DNA from: Candidatus Lokiarchaeum ossiferum
Lineage (GTDB): Archaea > Asgardarchaeota > Lokiarchaeia > Sigyniarchaeales > Promethearchaeaceae
NCBI GenBank assembly: GCA_025839675.1
Contig: CP104013.1
Coordinates: 2,040,001-2,072,000 of the forward strand
Reading direction: 5' to 3'
DNA: 32,000 nucleotides
A program made the translations under genes and the position numbers. Positions 8,525 through 23,946 of this stretch are shown piece after piece (position 1 is the first letter of the stretch; each line of letters begins with the position of its first letter). Below the pieces are notes generated by a model. The model saw only the letters and a list, made by a program, of their open reading frames with translations. It searched no databases and was not told the origin of the DNA.

Positions 8525-9191
8525 TTATAGCCCTCACCTCTTTCATTTCTGGAATCTTTCTTAAAGCAGATATTAGTTCATCTGGAATTTGTTTTGTTAA
8601 TTCAATCCAACTCATTGCAATTTTTTTCCGAATATTGCGGGAAAGGTGCATTTCGCTAATATTTATATCAAATATCGAAACAACACTAGCGATATTTGCC
8701 AATACTCCAGGAATATCATCGTGAACTTCAACAATAGTAGGAGAATCCGCATCAAAGCCCGCTTCTAATCCATCTATTTCTTTGATTCGTATATTGCCAC
8801 CTCCAATGGAAGAACCCACAATTGAAAGCTGTTTTTTATCCGTTTTCATAACAATTTTGATGGAATTTGGATGATAATCAGGACCCAAATCAGCCATTTC
8901 AAATTTAAATTTCATAGACTTTTCTTGAGCATGCTGAAAACTAAATGGAATTCGTTCATCGTCAGGTTTATAGCCAAGTAATCCCCCAACTATGGCTACA
9001 TCGGATCGATGGCCTCGATATGTTTCAGCAAACGACCCGTGCAAATATATCTTAGCCTCAAGAGGCATCCCCCCAAAGATAATATGGGACACATATCCAA
9101 TCCGACAGGCCCCAGCTGTGTGAGAAGAACTCGGCCCTACCATGATGCGACCAACCACATCAAAAATGGAATCATATTTCACAATGATCAA
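8517..9191 (-). CDS. sdaAB: L-serine dehydratase (iron-sulfur dependent), beta subunit with C-terminal ACT-like domain
   Basis: 224 aa. The N-terminus SIFDVVGRIMVGPSSSHTAGACRIG is the hallmark of the SdaAB family. The gene is coupled to sdaAA. Confidence 0.9.
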   Translation of the reverse strand: MIIVKYDSIFDVVGRIMVGPSSSHTAGACRIGYVSHIIFGGMPLEAKIYLHGSFAETYRGHRSDVAIVGGLLGYKPDDERIPFSFQHAQEKSMKFKFEMADLGPDYHPNSIKIVMKTDKKQLSIVGSSIGGGNIRIKEIDGLEAGFDADSPTIVEVHDDIPGVLANIASVVSIFDINISEMHLSRNIRKKIAMSWIELTKQIPDELISALRKIPEMKEVRAINV

Positions 9192-9248
9192 TTAATGCTA
9201 TTTTCCAATAAAACTTTAGGCGTGCTAGTTAAGATTATATTAAGAAAA

Positions 9249-9911
9249 ATGAATCGTTGTGAATTTATCTATAATGCCGCCATGACTATAGATGGAAAAA
9301 TTGCCACTCGGGAAGGAGACTCGCAACTTTCCGATGAGTTGGATTGGAAGGAAGTCCATGCCATCAGGAGGGATGTAGATGCAATTATGGTCGGAATCAC
9401 GACAGTCCAACAAGATGATCCCAAATTAACAGTCAAGTTTTACGGGCCTTTAAAAAAATATCCCACTCGTATTATTATTGATAGCCGAGGGAAAATACCT
9501 ATAAATGCGAGAGTGATTAACTTTGAAAAGGATAAATATCCCACATTAATTGCGACCACCACCCATATAGACCCAAAAAAGAAGGAACAGTTGATTCAGA
9601 AAGGAGTGACTGTCATCGAAGCGGGAATAAATCAACACGTTGATCTCTTGTTATTAGCCAAAAAGTTATGGGAATTAGGCATCAAGAAAGTACTCTTAGA
9701 AGGAGGGGGAACTTTGGCTTGGGGATTATTGGAACAAGATCTCATTGATGAAATTAGATTATTTGTAGCTCCATTTTTAACCGGTGGAAAAAAAGCCACG
9801 AGCTTGATTATGGGGGAAGGATTTCCAAAAATACTTTCCTCCCGAAAATTCAATTTGGTAGACCTCAAGAGCCGAAATTCGAATGTTATAGTAAAATATT
9901 CTCGTAAATAG
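9249..9911 (+). CDS. RibD C-terminal-domain reductase (archaeal-type 2,5-diamino-6-ribosylamino-4(3H)-pyrimidinone 5'-phosphate reductase-like)
   Basis: The track ORF starts at 9009 but overlaps sdaAB antisense. The internal ATG at 9249 gives MNRCEFIYNAAMTIDGKIATREGDSQLSD...IMVGITTVQQDDPKLTV...LLEGGGTLAWGLL...DEIRLFVAP, which is the RibD_C/DHFR-like pattern at the usual length of about 220 aa. Confidence 0.75.
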   Translation: MNRCEFIYNAAMTIDGKIATREGDSQLSDELDWKEVHAIRRDVDAIMVGITTVQQDDPKLTVKFYGPLKKYPTRIIIDSRGKIPINARVINFEKDKYPTLIATTTHIDPKKKEQLIQKGVTVIEAGINQHVDLLLLAKKLWELGIKKVLLEGGGTLAWGLLEQDLIDEIRLFVAPFLTGGKKATSLIMGEGFPKILSSRKFNLVDLKSRNSNVIVKYSRK

Positions 9912-13111: not shown

Positions 13112-14296
13112 ATGGAAGATAAGATTTATTTAGACAATGCAGCGACTACACGTTGCCATGAAGATGTACTGAAAGAAATGATACCTTATTTTACAGATAT
13201 ATATGGAAATGCTTCTTCACTTCATACAATGGGCCAAGAAGCCAGAAAAATCATCGAAAATGCCCGTGCTAGAATTGCAAAATACTTGAATGCTAATCCA
13301 AACGAGATCATTTTTACTGGAAGTGGTACAGAATCAGACAATATAGCCATCTTAGGAACTGCCCGCAAACTTAAATCACGCGGAAATCATTTAATTACTT
13401 CAAATATCGAACACCCAGCAGTTCGAAATACGTTCCACCATTTACAAAGAGAAGGGTTCGAAATAACTGAAGTTCCAATATCCCCAAATGGGACAGTCTC
13501 AGTTAAAGATGTAGAAGATGCAATCCGTCCAGAAACAATTTTCATTTCAATTATGTATGCGAATAATGAAATAGGGTCAATCCAACCTATTGAAGAAATC
13601 GCAAAACTTGCAGATGACCGTGATATCATTTTTCACACTGATGCAGTCCAAGCTCTGGGAAAATTAAGATTGGATCTGAAAAATTCTCACATTCATTTAT
13701 TAAGTGCATCAGCTCATAAAATAATGGGTCCGAAAGGTGTTGGGCTATTGTATTTTAAAAATAAATGTCGGCATCCAAAGTTAGGTAAATTTTTAGAACC
13801 AATTACTTATGGAGGAGGGCATGAAGGAGGATACCGGTCTGCAACAGAAAATGTTCCAGGTATAGTAGGATTTGCTAAAGCCATTGAAATCGCCTACAAT
13901 GATTTGGAAGCGGAACAAACCCGAGAAAAAAAAATTCGCGATGATTTTATAACTTGGGTACTCACAAACATCCCAGAATCCTATCTGAATGGATCCCAAG
14001 AAAACCGATTAGCAAATAATATTAACCTCGGTTTTAGATATATTGAAGGCGAATCCCTTCTATTATATCTTAATGATGAAGGTTTTGAAGTTTCCACAGG
14101 ATCAGCATGCTCTTCACATTCATTAGAACCTTCCCATGTACTATTAGCTTTAGGGTTGGAAAAGGCAGAGGCTCATGGATCATTGCGAATCACCCTTGGA
14201 AGAGATGTAAATCAAGCAGATATGAACAATTTAAAGCCAGTTCTCAAACAAGTCGTTGAAAACTTGCGAAAACTTTCTCCTTTAGCACCACATTAA
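13112..14296 (+). CDS. iscS: cysteine desulfurase (NifS/IscS class, PLP-dependent)
   Basis: 394 aa. IYLDNAATT lies at the N-terminus. The PLP lysine lies in SASAHKIMGPKGVG and the catalytic Cys in STGSACSS. Confidence 0.9.
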   Translation: MEDKIYLDNAATTRCHEDVLKEMIPYFTDIYGNASSLHTMGQEARKIIENARARIAKYLNANPNEIIFTGSGTESDNIAILGTARKLKSRGNHLITSNIEHPAVRNTFHHLQREGFEITEVPISPNGTVSVKDVEDAIRPETIFISIMYANNEIGSIQPIEEIAKLADDRDIIFHTDAVQALGKLRLDLKNSHIHLLSASAHKIMGPKGVGLLYFKNKCRHPKLGKFLEPITYGGGHEGGYRSATENVPGIVGFAKAIEIAYNDLEAEQTREKKIRDDFITWVLTNIPESYLNGSQENRLANNINLGFRYIEGESLLLYLNDEGFEVSTGSACSSHSLEPSHVLLALGLEKAEAHGSLRITLGRDVNQADMNNLKPVLKQVVENLRKLSPLAPH

Positions 14297-14689
14297 TTGA
14301 TTGGTAAGCTGAATTTTTTTCTAGTTTCATTTCCTCAAGGAGAATATTTTTTTAGTCATGTTTTAACGATCGTTATAGGATTAAATATCCTTTTGATTCT
14401 AATTGGAACTTATATTCCTTTTATGAAGAATACACGCTCGATGATGAATTCAAATGATAACCAACGAATTAATAATCAAAAAAGGAAGATTTTTCTGAAA
14501 ATTGGAATGAAATATATAGATATTGTAGGAATTTTCCCTTTAATGTTGATCCCGTTTATTTTCTTCAATGATGTAGAATCCATTGGGATTTTTTTGGGAA
14601 TCGCAGCAATTTTCGCAACATGTTCCATAGGTAGTGACATATATCAATATCGAGGCAAGATAGAAAAAGAAACAATTGTTAAATCCTAA
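14297..14689 (+). CDS. hypothetical small membrane protein; start uncertain
   Basis: The ORF abuts the iscS stop and begins with TTG. The first in-frame ATG is at codon 43. There are about 3 hydrophobic helices. No family recognised. Confidence 0.3.
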   Translation: MIGKLNFFLVSFPQGEYFFSHVLTIVIGLNILLILIGTYIPFMKNTRSMMNSNDNQRINNQKRKIFLKIGMKYIDIVGIFPLMLIPFIFFNDVESIGIFLGIAAIFATCSIGSDIYQYRGKIEKETIVKS

Positions 14690-14747
14690 TGGATTCTTTG
14701 AATACTTCATCAAATTTCTTATTTTTTATTTGTTTTTTATATTTTAA

Positions 14748-14778
14748 TTGTGCATAATTAGTGCACAAACTTTATATA
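14748..14778 (+). promoter_or_regulatory. inverted repeat TTGTGCA-N7-TGCACAA (14748-14768) abutting the TATA box TTTATATA (14771-14778); promoter of the Sec-containing ORF
   Basis: Read directly. The TATA box ends 23 nt before GTG 14802, which fits archaeal TATA-to-TSS spacing and implies a leaderless or near-leaderless mRNA. Confidence 0.45.
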
Positions 14779-14801
14779 TCATTTTCACTGATCAATACTT
14801 A

Positions 14802-15104
14802 GTGATACCCTTGAAAGTAACAAAGAAAGCTCAAGAATATATGCAAGAACAATCGAAGCAATTTGAAAATCCGGCTTTGGTAGTGTTCGAACGTGTCTAT
14901 CGTGGATGATGTGGCACGGAAAAAGTCAATACAGTCGTTATTGCAGATCAAAAACAAATCGGAGATAAAAATGCTTTTGAAGAGAAAAAAATGGAAAATC
15001 TTGAATTTCCATTATTCTTGGATAAGAATCTCATCGGTTTATGGGATCGAACCAAAGTCGATCTCGTTGGTTGGTCTAGCTTCAAACGATTAGCATTAGT
15101 ATAG
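14802..15104 (+). CDS. HesB/IscA-like small selenoprotein candidate (in-frame TGA = Sec at 14907-14909, G-U-C-G motif)
   Basis: Not in the track. The frame starting at 14802 reads VIPLKVTKKAQEYMQEQSKQFENPALVVFERVYRG[TGA]CGTEKVNTVVIADQKQIGDKNAFEEKKMENLEFPLFLDKNLIGLWDRTKVDLVGWSSFKRLALV, then TAG at 15102-15104. By eye it aligns to A-type carriers (E. coli IscA ITLSDSAA...RLGVRTSGCSGMAYVLEF...[26 protein letters not shown]), with U-C at the GCSG cysteine position. There is no canonical start codon for 27 codons after the TGA. A SECIS-like hairpin lies in the 3'UTR. Confidence 0.6.
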
Positions 15105-15113
15105 ACTCTAAAA

Positions 15114-15179
15114 CTCAGAGGAATGACACAAATTCGTAAACCTTGGAATTTGTTGACACCTATGCCATAGGATTCTGAG
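15114..15179 (+). promoter_or_regulatory. SECIS-like 3'UTR stem-loop with an AUGA...AAA...GA (kink-turn type) core
   Basis: Helix I is CTCAGA (15114-15119) paired with TCTGAG (15174-15179). ATGA (15123-15126) sits opposite GA (15155-15156). Helix II is ACAAATTC (15128-15135) paired with GAATTTGT (15146-15153). The 10-nt apical loop GTAAACCTTG contains AAA. A side hairpin CCTAT-GCC-ATAGG lies at 15159-15171. The element starts 10 nt after the TAG and is followed by T6 (15190-15195). Confidence 0.5.
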
Positions 15180-15193
15180 CACAATCCCCTTTT

Positions 15194-16096
15194 TTATAGC
15201 ATTTCATGCATGGAACCACTTTTAAATCCATGTAAATCAATTGTGACGTACGTAAACCCAAATTTTTTTAGTTGAGATACGATTTTTTGTTGAAATCCCC
15301 TCTTTATAATTTGTTGATGAATCTCATTTTCACATTCAATGCGACCTAACAAATTAGTTGTTGGATGGAGTACATGAAGCCTTACACGAAGAGGACTATG
15401 ATCATTTTTCAGAAGAGTCCGTATAAATTGCTCACTTTGATCAATTTGAGCAAGAATCTGTGGAGTTAGGGGAACGTTGAAGGGTACCCGTGATGCCAGA
15501 CATGCTTGAGAAGGGATATCCTTTGATGGTAAATTAAGAATTTGACTAATTTGAATGATTTCTGCTTTTGAGAGTTCGGCTTCAGCTAGAGGAGACCGCA
15601 CAGGAGTTTCCTTTAATGCTTTCAATCCAGCGCGTGTAGTCGATAAATCGGAGAAATTCGTACCATCAACAACCAGATCAAATTGACGTTGTTCAGCCAA
15701 AGTTAAGAGAATTTTTAATATTTGCTGCTTACAGAAATAGCATCTTGCTTCTGAATTCTGGGCAATATCAGGAATTGCCAAGGTATTCACCTCAATTATT
15801 TCAAGCGTTAATGATAATTCTTTACTAAATTTCTGGGCTTGTAAAAACTCTTGTTGAGGAGTGGTGGGAGCTTTAATTAATACTACTAAAACTTTTTGTG
15901 CAAATTCCTTTGCAAGAAAAGCAAGAAAAGTACTATCGATTCCACCAGAGAAAGCAACAATAACCTTTTGATCCTTAAACATGGCTTGTATAATATCAAT
16001 TTTTTTCCATAAATCTTTTGTAAATTTATTACGATCTAATTGTGAGCTAACCATTATCCCTACTTCCATTGAACAATTGGTGCTAAAAAAGCGCAT
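15194..16096 (-). CDS. PP-loop ATP pyrophosphatase, LarE-like sulfur transferase family (TIGR00268-type) with a putative Fe-S-binding Cys triad
   Basis: The SGGxDS PP-loop is present in VIVAFSGGIDSTFLA. A CxxC lies in EARCYFCKQQ and a third Cys in SQACLASRVP. The true start may be Met10 (16069) or Met15 (16054) of the track ORF. Confidence 0.8.
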   Translation of the reverse strand: MRFFSTNCSMEVGIMVSSQLDRNKFTKDLWKKIDIIQAMFKDQKVIVAFSGGIDSTFLAFLAKEFAQKVLVVLIKAPTTPQQEFLQAQKFSKELSLTLEIIEVNTLAIPDIAQNSEARCYFCKQQILKILLTLAEQRQFDLVVDGTNFSDLSTTRAGLKALKETPVRSPLAEAELSKAEIIQISQILNLPSKDIPSQACLASRVPFNVPLTPQILAQIDQSEQFIRTLLKNDHSPLRVRLHVLHPTTNLLGRIECENEIHQQIIKRGFQQKIVSQLKKFGFTYVTIDLHGFKSGSMHEML

Positions 16097-22665: not shown

Positions 22666-23946
22666 TCATGAAATTTGATGAGATTTCCACCGAAAATCAT
22701 GGCTAATTTTTGCATAATGGCGATTTAATTGATCCAATTCTTCAAAATTATAAACTTGAATCACAATATACGACAGATCAGGATGAAAAATGGATGCATC
22801 TAAAATAACAATGAATCTATGGCCATCGTCTAATGAAAAGGTGAAATAGTCGCCTTTTTCTCCAAAAATTCGTTTATGATCCATCAATAACTTGAGAATA
22901 TAGGATTTCAGTGAATTAATCTCATCTAAAACCTTGTTATCAGTGGTGAAGAGTGATGCGATATCAAAATCTTTATCTAATAAAAATAATGGTTGAATCA
23001 TGGAAGTATCGGCAAGCATTTGAAATAATTCTGAAAAGAAATTGAAAAACAGGGAGAATTTATCCAGAATCAACTGAGTCCCAATAATTAAATCTTGATT
23101 TCCTTGATATTGGAGACTGGTGAAGAAAATCGGAATATTATTTTTAAATGCGAATTCTTGAAGAGATATTTGATCAAAATCAGGAAAATCAGCAACTAAA
23201 TCAAATTTATGACAAAAAATGACAATCTGAGGGCATATTTTTTCTTCACTTTGATTAATACGGATTAAACGCGATAAAGTATCTAACAATTTCTCGGAAC
23301 TGAGGGTCCAGTCTTCGACAGAAATGAAAAAAATAATGAGATCCGAATATTGCAAAAGATTTTCATCTGGATCCAGCCATCGTTCAATTTCTTGGCCCGA
23401 AGTATCAAACACTGATAGTTGCAAATCAATGAGATCATAATGCGACGTTTCAAATGCTTCCGTGGGGGAAAGGGAAGTATTTAATAAATCTTCGCTGGTA
23501 ATTTTATCAAAAATGAACTGTTTCGTTGAAGTCTTTCCTGAATTCGGATACCCCATGAACACTATCTTTCTGATTTTAGGTTCTATAATATTTTTTGCAA
23601 ATTTGTAGAAACATTGATTTCTTTGATCTTTAGCCATTTGGAGTATAGAATCACCTTGAATTTTGAGTTCCATTTGAAGTTTATTTATCAAAACTGTATC
23701 GGTTTCATCTAATACTGCGACAATAAAATCGTAATTCATGATCCCATCTCTCACTGGAAATCCATAAATTAAAACAATTTGATTTTCATCCTTGATTTCT
23801 AACGTTGGAGATGTACCCAAAGCTTGCAATGTCGCCAAATATTGCGAAATTTTATTCTTATCGATTTGAGAATTGTCCGGATATTGAGCTTCGATTATTG
23901 AACCCAACATATTATCCCAACCAACTAAGAATATCCCTTTTAGCAT
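22666..23946 (-). CDS. multidomain small GTPase: N-terminal longin/roadblock-like domain, Rag/Gtr-like GTPase domain, C-terminal roadblock-like domain
   Basis: 426 aa. G1 is KIVFMGYPNSGKTS (23530-23553), G3 is DTSGQ (23392-23406) and G4 is CHKFD (23200-23211). By eye it matches human RagA segment by segment: KVLLMGKSGSGKTSM, WDCGGQD and FCLVHKMDLV. The flanking ~120-aa regions have alternating beta/alpha-like patterns. Confidence 0.8.
   Translation of the reverse strand: MLKGIFLVGWDNMLGSIIEAQYPDNSQIDKNKISQYLATLQALGTSPTLEIKDENQIVLIYGFPVRDGIMNYDFIVAVLDETDTVLINKLQMELKIQGDSILQMAKDQRNQCFYKFAKNIIEPKIRKIVFMGYPNSGKTSTKQFIFDKITSEDLLNTSLSPTEAFETSHYDLIDLQLSVFDTSGQEIERWLDPDENLLQYSDLIIFFISVEDWTLSSEKLLDTLSRLIRINQSEEKICPQIVIFCHKFDLVADFPDFDQISLQEFAFKNNIPIFFTSLQYQGNQDLIIGTQLILDKFSLFFNFFSELFQMLADTSMIQPLFLLDKDFDIASLFTTDNKVLDEINSLKSYILKLLMDHKRIFGEKGDYFTFSLDDGHRFIVILDASIFHPDLSYIVIQVYNFEELDQLNRHYAKISHDFRWKSHQIS

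Follow-up and report, generated by a model that had tools for sequence, protein, structure and literature searches.

The stretch analysed here, referred to below as the window, comprises 32,000 nucleotides of the forward strand of contig CP104013.1 of Candidatus Lokiarchaeum ossiferum (GCA_025839675.1, positions 2,040,001 to 2,072,000), and its subject is a short reading frame on the forward strand which is interrupted by a single TGA codon and followed by a hairpin in the 3′ untranslated region (3′UTR). The evidence presented below makes it highly probable that this locus is a real, unannotated Lokiarchaeum selenoprotein gene, in which the TGA specifies selenocysteine (Sec) with the help of a eukaryote-like Sec insertion sequence (SECIS). 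Its features are as follows, with positions numbered within the window and with the support for each given after it (CDS, coding sequence; dN/dS, ratio of non-synonymous to synonymous substitution rates; MFE, minimum free energy):

14811..14906, + strand: CDS part 1, TTG start and codons 1-32, (M)KVTKKAQEYMQEQSKQFENPALVVFERVYRG; start alignment with orthologs, dN/dS
14907..14909, + strand: proposed Sec codon, in-frame TGA; TGA conserved in approximately 14 distinct homolog versions
14910..15104, + strand: CDS part 2, codons 34-97 (CGTEK...GWSSFKRLALV), TAG stop at 15102-15104; dN/dS, C-terminal homology
15114..15179, + strand: SECIS-like element; MFE fold, RNAalifold consensus of 6 orthologs, sole motif match in the window
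15159..15171, + strand: auxiliary hairpin CCUAU-GCC-AUAGG; adjoins the GA(C) core on its 3′ side, within the internal loop of the SECIS

The interrupted reading frame

A first-pass annotation of the window, made from its letters alone, had drawn attention to a frame with a single TGA directly before a Cys codon. This is borne out on the sequence, where the frame from GTG 14802 to TAG 15102-15104 is open for 100 codons except for the one TGA at 14907-14909, which stands in the context R-G-TGA-C-G-T (translation ...FERVYRG*CGTEK...GWSSFKRLALV), while the mechanical list of open reading frames (ORFs) holds only fragments at the locus (14748-14909, 14893-15093 and 14991-15104). Also as described there, no start codon is available for 27 codons past the TGA, the first in-frame ATG, GTG or TTG being ATG 14991. 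The start of the gene itself, which had been put at GTG 14802, has been corrected by comparison with orthologs (homologous loci are given L numbers here): because L001 and L005 have an ATG aligned with TTG 14811 of the window, and in L002 the frame is closed by a TAA that separates the upstream GTG from the TTG, the start codon is placed by homology at TTG 14811. This gives a 97-codon frame from TTG 14811 to TAG 15104 and a predicted product of 97 amino acids (aa), in which Sec would be residue 33, followed by the invariant Cys34.

Conservation of the TGA, Cys-containing homologs and selection

An exhaustive HMMER search yielded 22 small homologs of the predicted protein, against only one homolog from a single-sequence word search. 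In the alignment of the 22 homologs the TGA column is occupied by either W or C, and the residue that follows is always Cys. A representative selection of the W-type entries was examined at the DNA level, and in every one of them the W corresponds to a TGA that has been miscalled by the gene caller; translation of these loci with table 11 does not yield the proteins as deposited, which marks the W calls as artefacts. A genuine TGG has never been seen at the TGA column, and Cys is the sole alternative residue among the homologs.

The TGA is kept in every TGA-type homolog whose DNA was read, and its column is conserved in approximately 14 distinct versions, from Lokiarchaeum, from Promethearchaeum (L002-5, L014-15) and from L013, L006-9 and L020-24. 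The ortholog L001, with 82% aa identity, retains the TGA together with the frame past it and the hairpin, and both the TGA and the element are likewise retained in three metagenome-assembled genomes of Promethearchaeum, in the chromosome of the cultured Promethearchaeum syntrophicum MK-D1, in three JGI contigs and in nine more distant TGA-form loci on seven distinct contigs. The Cys-containing homologs aligning across the TGA, which had been suggested as a check, have also been found: L016, L017 and L019 have a Cys codon (TGY) at the column, and these Cys-forms are single uninterrupted proteins of 97-102 aa. Judged from the alignment, the alternation of TGA and Cys at one column is the classical Sec/Cys pairing.

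As to the fate of the frame past the TGA, the possibility that homologs would end there had been raised as a point on which the selenoprotein reading would fall. Homology instead continues, under purifying selection, and all full-length homologs are homologous through to the C-terminus. Between the window and L001 the dN/dS is 0.033 upstream and 0.082 downstream of the TGA. The approximately 96% identical L010 (CP163304.1) differs from the window by 8 synonymous and 0 non-synonymous changes, with 3 of the synonymous changes upstream and 5 downstream of the TGA and no non-synonymous change on either side; two Logan contigs, L011 and L012, are 100% identical to the window sequence. The low dN/dS on both sides of the TGA indicates that both halves are translated in frame.

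These data bear directly on the suggestion that the locus consists of two small genes, one for a peptide of 32-35 aa ending at the TGA and the other for a 37-aa peptide from ATG 14991, the latter of which GenBank does list as the hypothetical protein NEF87_001688. The 27 codons from the TGA to ATG 14991 are, however, conserved as protein and are devoid of a start codon, the Cys-forms are uninterrupted over their 97-102 aa, and the whole length is predicted as one IscA-like domain, so that the two-gene arrangement is regarded as the least probable of the explanations weighed here, with hardly any likelihood left to it.

Another explanation is that the UGA is recoded as Trp or Cys, through near-cognate decoding or a local change of the code, with the element acting as a read-through stimulator or as an L7Ae-type kink-turn. 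It draws on the W that gene callers place at the TGA in metagenome entries, on the weak C/D-box snoRNA-like Rfam matches over the AUGA region (E = 3.9) and on no SBP2 being known from Asgard archaea. The W calls, however, are the artefacts described above, and Cys is the only alternative at the column, where TGG never occurs. The TGA is also the normal stop of 4 of the 23 other long ORFs in the window, e.g. of the IscU gene, which indicates that the genetic code is not reassigned, and the element shares features with the SECIS elements behind established Asgard selenoprotein genes. Recoding as Trp or Cys is thus considered improbable, if somewhat less so than the other alternatives.

The SECIS-like element in the 3′UTR

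The SECIS-like element begins 10 nt past the TAG stop and is 66 nt long. The hairpin described in the first-pass annotation has been reproduced in full, as the MFE fold of the 3′UTR is exactly that structure and the RNAalifold consensus of six orthologs agrees with it. In helix I, CUCAGA(G) at 15114-15120 pairs with (U)UCUGAG at 15173-15179; the AUGA lies at 15123-15126 and the GA at 15155-15156; and the 8-bp helix II is formed by ACAAAUUC (15128-15135) and GAAUUUGU (15146-15153), beside a C.U mismatch that adjoins the core. The apical loop, GUAAACCUUG, is 10 nt long (15136-15145) and has its AAA at 15138-15140, 11 nt from the AUGA. The calculated energies are -6.5 kcal/mol for the core alone and -15.8 kcal/mol for the whole element.

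For a systematic comparison, the loci were scanned with a motif that runs from ATGA and one N through a stem-loop with 7 or more bp to one or two N and GA, and that has AAA approximately 11 nt past the ATGA. Both strands of the window contain one match, at 15123, against an expectation of about 0.18 per simulated window, a comparison with chance that is flattered by the motif having been set after the elements were seen. The TGA-form loci each contain exactly one match, on the coding strand and just 3′ of the stop, and the motif is absent behind the gene in the Cys-forms L017 and L019. The third Cys-form, L016, which reads GCCG (ENA ERZ23498622 scaffold_518711, 420-500), has behind its stop a decayed copy of the SECIS, with UUGA in place of AUGA, GAU in place of GAC and the stem GCAAGUUU/AAAUUUGC still present; judging by these remnants, L016 looks like a recent Sec-to-Cys conversion.

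Conservation of the hairpin behind orthologs, on which the first-pass annotation had staked its reading, thus extends to every Sec-form, with stems that differ from one another and remain complementary. Although the stems of 13 distinct elements vary widely in sequence, none of their seven innermost pairs departs from Watson-Crick or G-U pairing; the count is to some extent circular, as the search itself demanded pairing. The AAA stands exactly 11 nt past the AUGA in 11 of the 13. Stem pairs were counted directly, as a MAFFT alignment of the SECIS cores placed gaps inside the 3′ stem. The RNAalifold consensus of the six orthologs, which does not depend on the motif criterion, contains three compensatory pairs. 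Between the window and L010 the element differs by one substitution in 66 nt. A covariance model (R1), which contains much flank-specific sequence, recovered the near relatives together with L006 and L007 and did not recover L008 or L009.

The auxiliary hairpin is a feature of the family as well, with equivalents in L001, L005, L013, L006, L008, L020, L022 and L023, the loops of which mostly contain GCA or GCC. Of 10 distinct elements, 9 have a hairpin of 4 bp or more that starts 0-2 nt past the GAC; the mean count after shuffling is 3.6, and a count of 9 was attained by one shuffle in 2000. This hairpin was not part of the detection motif, so that the result is independent of the pairing criterion. 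It has to be noted that the test is clear only when anchored to this position, the test at a free position being weak (153 of 1000 shuffles reach the observed value). A hairpin of this kind next to the core was not found in the available parts of published SECIS descriptions, and the GCA-loop hairpin may be a new detail.

The statement that the element is not of the classical methanogen GAA_A type also holds, given that no GAA_A-type SECIS is present in the intergenic region. A loose GAA_A (eaSECIS) pattern had matches only 370-450 nt downstream, within the coding sequence of LarE, where the stems are weak and 3 bp long, and these were dismissed as chance.

The pattern of conservation of the element, taken together with the selection on the coding sequence, also speaks to the proposal that the locus is a pseudogene, i.e. 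a CC-motif gene broken by a TGY-to-TGA nonsense mutation, in which the hairpin would be a terminator or a chance structure. That annotation pipelines give fragments, that the stability of the fold is ordinary and that none of the 120 matches listed in a SelD search can be attributed to L. ossiferum would all agree with such a proposal. It is contradicted by the TGA being conserved in approximately 14 distinct versions from several genera, by the dN/dS of 0.08 past the TGA and the lack of any non-synonymous change relative to L010, and by the co-occurrence of the hairpin with TGA-forms only. The pseudogene is therefore judged very unlikely, more so than a Trp or Cys recoding and nearly as unlikely as the pair of small genes.

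Family and fold of the protein

The only NCBIfam match of the selenoprotein candidate is to NF041239 (CC/Se motif family (seleno)protein), with E = 3.5e-7, a score of 30.2 bits and an alignment that spans model positions 3-87 of 91, and the same model is matched by 14 of the 22 homologs (best E = 3.8e-9). Precomputed weak matches to PF28096 (CC_Se_fam) exist for several homologs. Throughout the family the vicinal dyad is U-C or C-C, and its second Cys is invariant. The proposal that the protein might belong to the CC/Se family hence pointed in the right direction, as the E-value indicates, with a score that stays below the 40 bits of the curated cut-off.

The description of the protein as HesB/IscA-like can be upheld for the fold and not for the sequence signature. 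An AlphaFold model built from a 16-sequence alignment has a mean predicted local distance difference test score (pLDDT) of 94.7, and in a Foldseek search against the PDB its eight best matches are IscA, SufA and HesB-type proteins, aligned over the full length with a probability of 1.00 and TM scores of 0.53-0.60 (among them 1r94, 1s98, 1x0g, 2d2a and 1nwb). The match to PF01521 (Fe-S_biosyn), by comparison, reaches 13.8 bits (E = 0.069) against a cut-off of 26.3, and 3 of the 22 homologs match that model with E < 0.1; a sequence profile search of the PDB gave no significant match, and cluster look-ups of the family gave no informative names. The C-terminal Cys-x-Cys is absent, the protein ending in ...GWSSFKRLALV with no Cys. 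TIGR01911, the HesB-like selenoprotein model, is not matched at E < 10, and an identity as a HesB-like selenoprotein of the Methanococcus type was ruled out on this ground and on that of the U-C-G-T motif.

In the predicted structure Sec33-Cys34 would be located at the turn of a long β-hairpin, with G-U-C-G corresponding to G-C35-S-G of E. coli IscA. The placement of the TGA at the first cluster-ligand Cys, as previously suggested, is thus favoured by fold and motif; an hhalign comparison with a manually entered sequence of E. coli IscA aligned only 29 central columns and was not significant, which leaves fold and motif as the basis for equating U33 with Cys35. On the strength of the model and of the NF041239 score below cut-off, the protein is best described as an IscA-fold, divergent archaeal branch of the CC/Se lineage and not as a canonical A-type carrier.

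Promoter, neighbouring genes and annotation

The remaining features around the gene are:

14748..14768, + strand: inverted repeat TTGTGCA-N7-TGCACAA; read from the sequence, just upstream of the TATA box
14771..14778, + strand: TATA-box-like TTTATATA; approximately 25-35 nt upstream of the start codon
15190..15195, + strand: T-run past the SECIS; read from the sequence, overlapping the convergent gene at its stop codon
15194..16096, - strand: LarE-family PP-loop ATP-dependent sulfurtransferase; TIGR00268 241 bits (cut-off 150), convergent neighbour
13112..14296, + strand: NifS/IscS-type cysteine desulfurase; PF00266 E = 5e-80, TIGR03402 NifS 494 bits
10650-11024: IscU/NifU_N gene; NifU_N E = 4e-50

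The TATA-like box, which we take to be the archaeal promoter, recurs in the corresponding position of L001 and L002-L005, as TTTAAATA or TTTATATA, and its distance of approximately 25-35 nt from the start codon implies a leaderless or very short-leader mRNA. The inverted repeat next to it is also present in L001, and its TGCACAA half-site stands beside the TATA box in the Promethearchaeum loci; from its sequence and position, it may be a regulator-binding site, perhaps one responsive to iron, sulfur or selenium. T-runs are found 3′ of the element in the orthologs as well and are possibly archaeal transcription stops. No tRNA gene and no Sec machinery are located within the window.

The convergent pairing with a LarE gene is shared, by model score, with MK-D1 (L005 3404-4273) and with L013 (987-1847), TIGR00268 giving 228-241 bits across the copies, and, judged from alignment and from the sequence downstream, with L001 and L002-L004. 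The LarE-like protein of the window has a CxxC and a third Cys (ARCYFCK, SQACLASR), in which it presumably resembles the cluster-dependent, non-sacrificial type of LarE.

The interval from NifS to the selenoprotein gene is occupied in the window by a hydrophobic ORF of 130 aa (14297-14689), which matches no family; in its place L010 has a 283-aa ATC_hydrolase gene (8872-9723), a local gene replacement between close strains. Farther away, and unrelated to the selenoprotein, the gene at 22666-23946 on the minus strand has a counterpart in L010 with precomputed Gtr1_RagA and weak Arf matches, and is a eukaryote-signature small GTPase of the sort typical of Asgard genomes.

In the GenBank annotation of Candidatus Lokiarchaeum ossiferum only the last 37 aa of the gene are represented, as the hypothetical protein NEF87_001688 mentioned above, and NCBI also lists a 63-aa partial protein, MHA2019579.1. 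The public entries P0001-P0022, P0024 and P0030 have a W at the TGA or are N- or C-terminal fragments, meaning that the family is systematically mis-annotated. A separate observation concerns the minus strand of L019 at approximately 486-800 (Logan SRR22746113_711266), where an uncalled frame reads ...WVVITPEIGS-TGA-TGA-PDGSSFGRIEPEQ... and is followed by a SECIS-like element (ATGATCTTATCAAAAAAACGCCGTTGATAAGGGAC); going by its sequence, this frame may be a further selenoprotein gene that has escaped annotation, its product having two adjacent Sec residues.

Sec use in the lineage and weighing of the evidence

Relatives of the organism lend indirect support to the use of Sec. It has been reported for 85.9% of Lokiarchaeia/Helarchaeales genomes, and a complete Sec machinery has been reported for Lokiarchaeum GC14_75 by Mariotti et al. 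2016 (PMC4989117). For MK-D1 (GCA_008000775), Sec-containing SelD, FrhA, FrhD, HdrA and Prx-like proteins are listed, and the same genome carries the orthologous TGA gene with its element.

Several results have to be set against the selenoprotein reading. Sec insertion at the UGA is deduced from comparison, and the SelD search, as mentioned, returned nothing attributable to L. ossiferum among the 120 matches listed. With regard to the element, its fold stability is ordinary (z = -0.52 for a 101-nt stretch of AT-rich DNA), the helix II count is partly circular, and a crude longest-helix test gives a result for helix I that is only borderline, the observed value being reached by 29 shuffles out of 1000. 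The scoring with SECIS models that had been suggested at the outset was negative with Rfam: its SECIS models, whether eukaryotic, bacterial or archaeal, gave no match, no Rfam family at all matched the whole window at gathering thresholds, and at E up to 10 the region 14700-15300 gave no SECIS family and only weak snoRNA-like noise. According to the available portions of Mariotti et al. 2016 (PMC4989117) and Huang et al. 2024 (PMC11227280), Rfam-type SECIS models miss all Loki/Asgard SECIS elements too. With regard to the protein, both NF041239 (30.2 bits against 40) and PF01521 score under their cut-offs, the pairing with LarE is not seen in the most distant homologs, and the proposed biochemical role is deduced from fold and gene neighbourhood.

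Proposed mechanism and role

In the model that we propose, a short-leader mRNA would be transcribed from the TATA promoter near 14771, and its translation would begin at TTG 14811, as homology indicates. On strong comparative support, the UGA at codon 33 would be read as Sec and not as a stop, the recoding presumably being directed by the kink-turn-type SECIS of the 3′UTR (15114-15179), for which conservation, covariation and the fit to Asgard models argue, and Sec-tRNA would be delivered by the archaeal EFsec. The product would be a 97-aa protein of the IscA/HesB fold that exposes a vicinal Sec33-Cys34 pair at the tip of the β-hairpin, where A-type carriers have their first ligand Cys.

As for its function, the adjacency of NifS, the pairing with LarE and the fold together make a role in sulfur or Fe-S trafficking the most likely one, which could take the form of e.g. 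a persulfide/selenosulfide relay or a dimer holding a cluster through two Sec and two Cys. A more elaborate version, in which the Sec-Cys protein and its LarE partner would constitute a selenium-dependent relay fed by NifS (of the persulfide/selenosulfide kind or with a 2Se2S dimer cluster), and in which the GCA hairpin would additionally serve as a SECIS-recognition module in the absence of SBP2, is speculative and, in its entirety, rather unlikely.

The gene would add one more family to the Asgard and archaeal selenoprotein catalogues, from a lineage catalogued in bacteria only, and it illustrates that homology-seeded surveys miss small, divergent selenoproteins. It occurs in both cultured genera, Lokiarchaeum and Promethearchaeum (MK-D1), where it is mis-annotated as a hypothetical fragment of 37 or 63 aa. 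Its coding sequence is no longer than approximately 300 nt and its element measures 66 nt, so that it offers a compact natural test case for how a eukaryote-like SECIS works without SBP2. It would also place selenium in a setting of sulfur and Fe-S trafficking (NifS, IscU, LarE-like), and not in the hydrogenase and heterodisulfide-reductase setting that dominates the known archaeal selenoproteomes.

Comparison with known systems

The eukaryote-style AUGA-AA-GA arrangement recognized in the first-pass annotation fits the type I model of Asgard eukaryote-like SECIS (eSECIS-like) elements. As given in the available part of Huang et al. 2024 (PMC11227280), type I elements have a core 5′-GA...[G/A]A-3′ (usually AUGA_GA) flanking an upper stem that measures 7-15 bp and may contain up to 2 mismatches; their loop has 8-20 nt, their energy is below -5 kcal/mol, and they are situated in the interval from 30 nt before to 600 nt after the stop codon of a gene whose UGA is aligned to Cys/Sec. 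In the window, AUGA and GA flank an upper stem of 8 bp without mismatch, the loop has 10 nt, the core has an energy of -6.5 kcal/mol, helix I starts 10 nt past the TAG, and UGA/Cys pairs are present in the alignment.

The lokiSECIS elements, in the accessible description of Mariotti et al. 2016 (PMC4989117), have a uniform 9-bp stem, an 11-nt loop whose first five positions are A-rich and whose last is G, and a GA after the stem. The element of the window resembles these in its AUGA, its early unpaired A's, its loop of the form GUAAA...G, the GA after the stem and its position in the 3′UTR near the stop, and differs from them in its 8-bp stem with an added C.U mismatch and in its loop of 10 nt, against 9 bp and 11 nt. 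The G-U-A-A-A start of the loop is a variant described, in the published material available, for other Asgard genes. Relative to the published descriptions of Asgard eSECIS-like elements, the window family stands out by the extra hairpin with a GCA or GCC loop 3′ of the GA(C) and by a host gene family that is new. The likeness to the eukaryotic SECIS of form 1 lies in the AUGA/GA core of tandem sheared pairs, in helix I and helix II, in the apical A's at a distance of approximately 11 nt and in the 3′UTR location, whereas the upper stem is shorter, the 3′ hairpin is additional, the Rfam models are silent, and the Asgard hosts are without SBP2.

On the protein side, the CC/Se family (NF041239 ‘Moor_selen_rel’, PF28096) is approached most closely, with a model match over nearly the full length, the vicinal dyad and a size of about 100 aa. 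Its bacterial members would use a bacterial SECIS within the ORF, whereas the gene of the window has an eSECIS-like element in the 3′UTR. The HesB-like selenoproteins of Methanococcus and bacteria (TIGR01911, UxGP) share with it the small IscA/HesB fold and the Sec at the first conserved Cys, and the distant members L009 and L022 of the window family come nearer to them still in reading U-C-G-P. The protein of the window reads U-C-G-T, however, and does not match TIGR01911, and the HesB-like genes of Methanococcus use GAA_A SECIS, of which the intergenic region of the window has none. The A-type carriers IscA, SufA and ErpA (PF01521) resemble it in the predicted fold and in the presence of NifS and IscU in the neighbourhood, but they have three ligand Cys, one in the turn and two in the C-terminal C-x-C, in contrast to the window protein with its turn pair U33/C34 only.

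Neither of the available surveys places this lineage among the archaea. The seven selenoprotein families reported from more than 400 Asgard genomes in the accessible text of Huang et al. 2024 (PMC11227280) include none that is HesB-like or CC/Se, and a 2026 review, as far as its text is available, counts eleven families for all archaea, with CC/Se catalogued for bacteria only and not marked as archaeal. Both the selenoprotein lineage and the kind of SECIS are thus already known, and the gene described here is an archaeal, and specifically Asgard, addition to that lineage.

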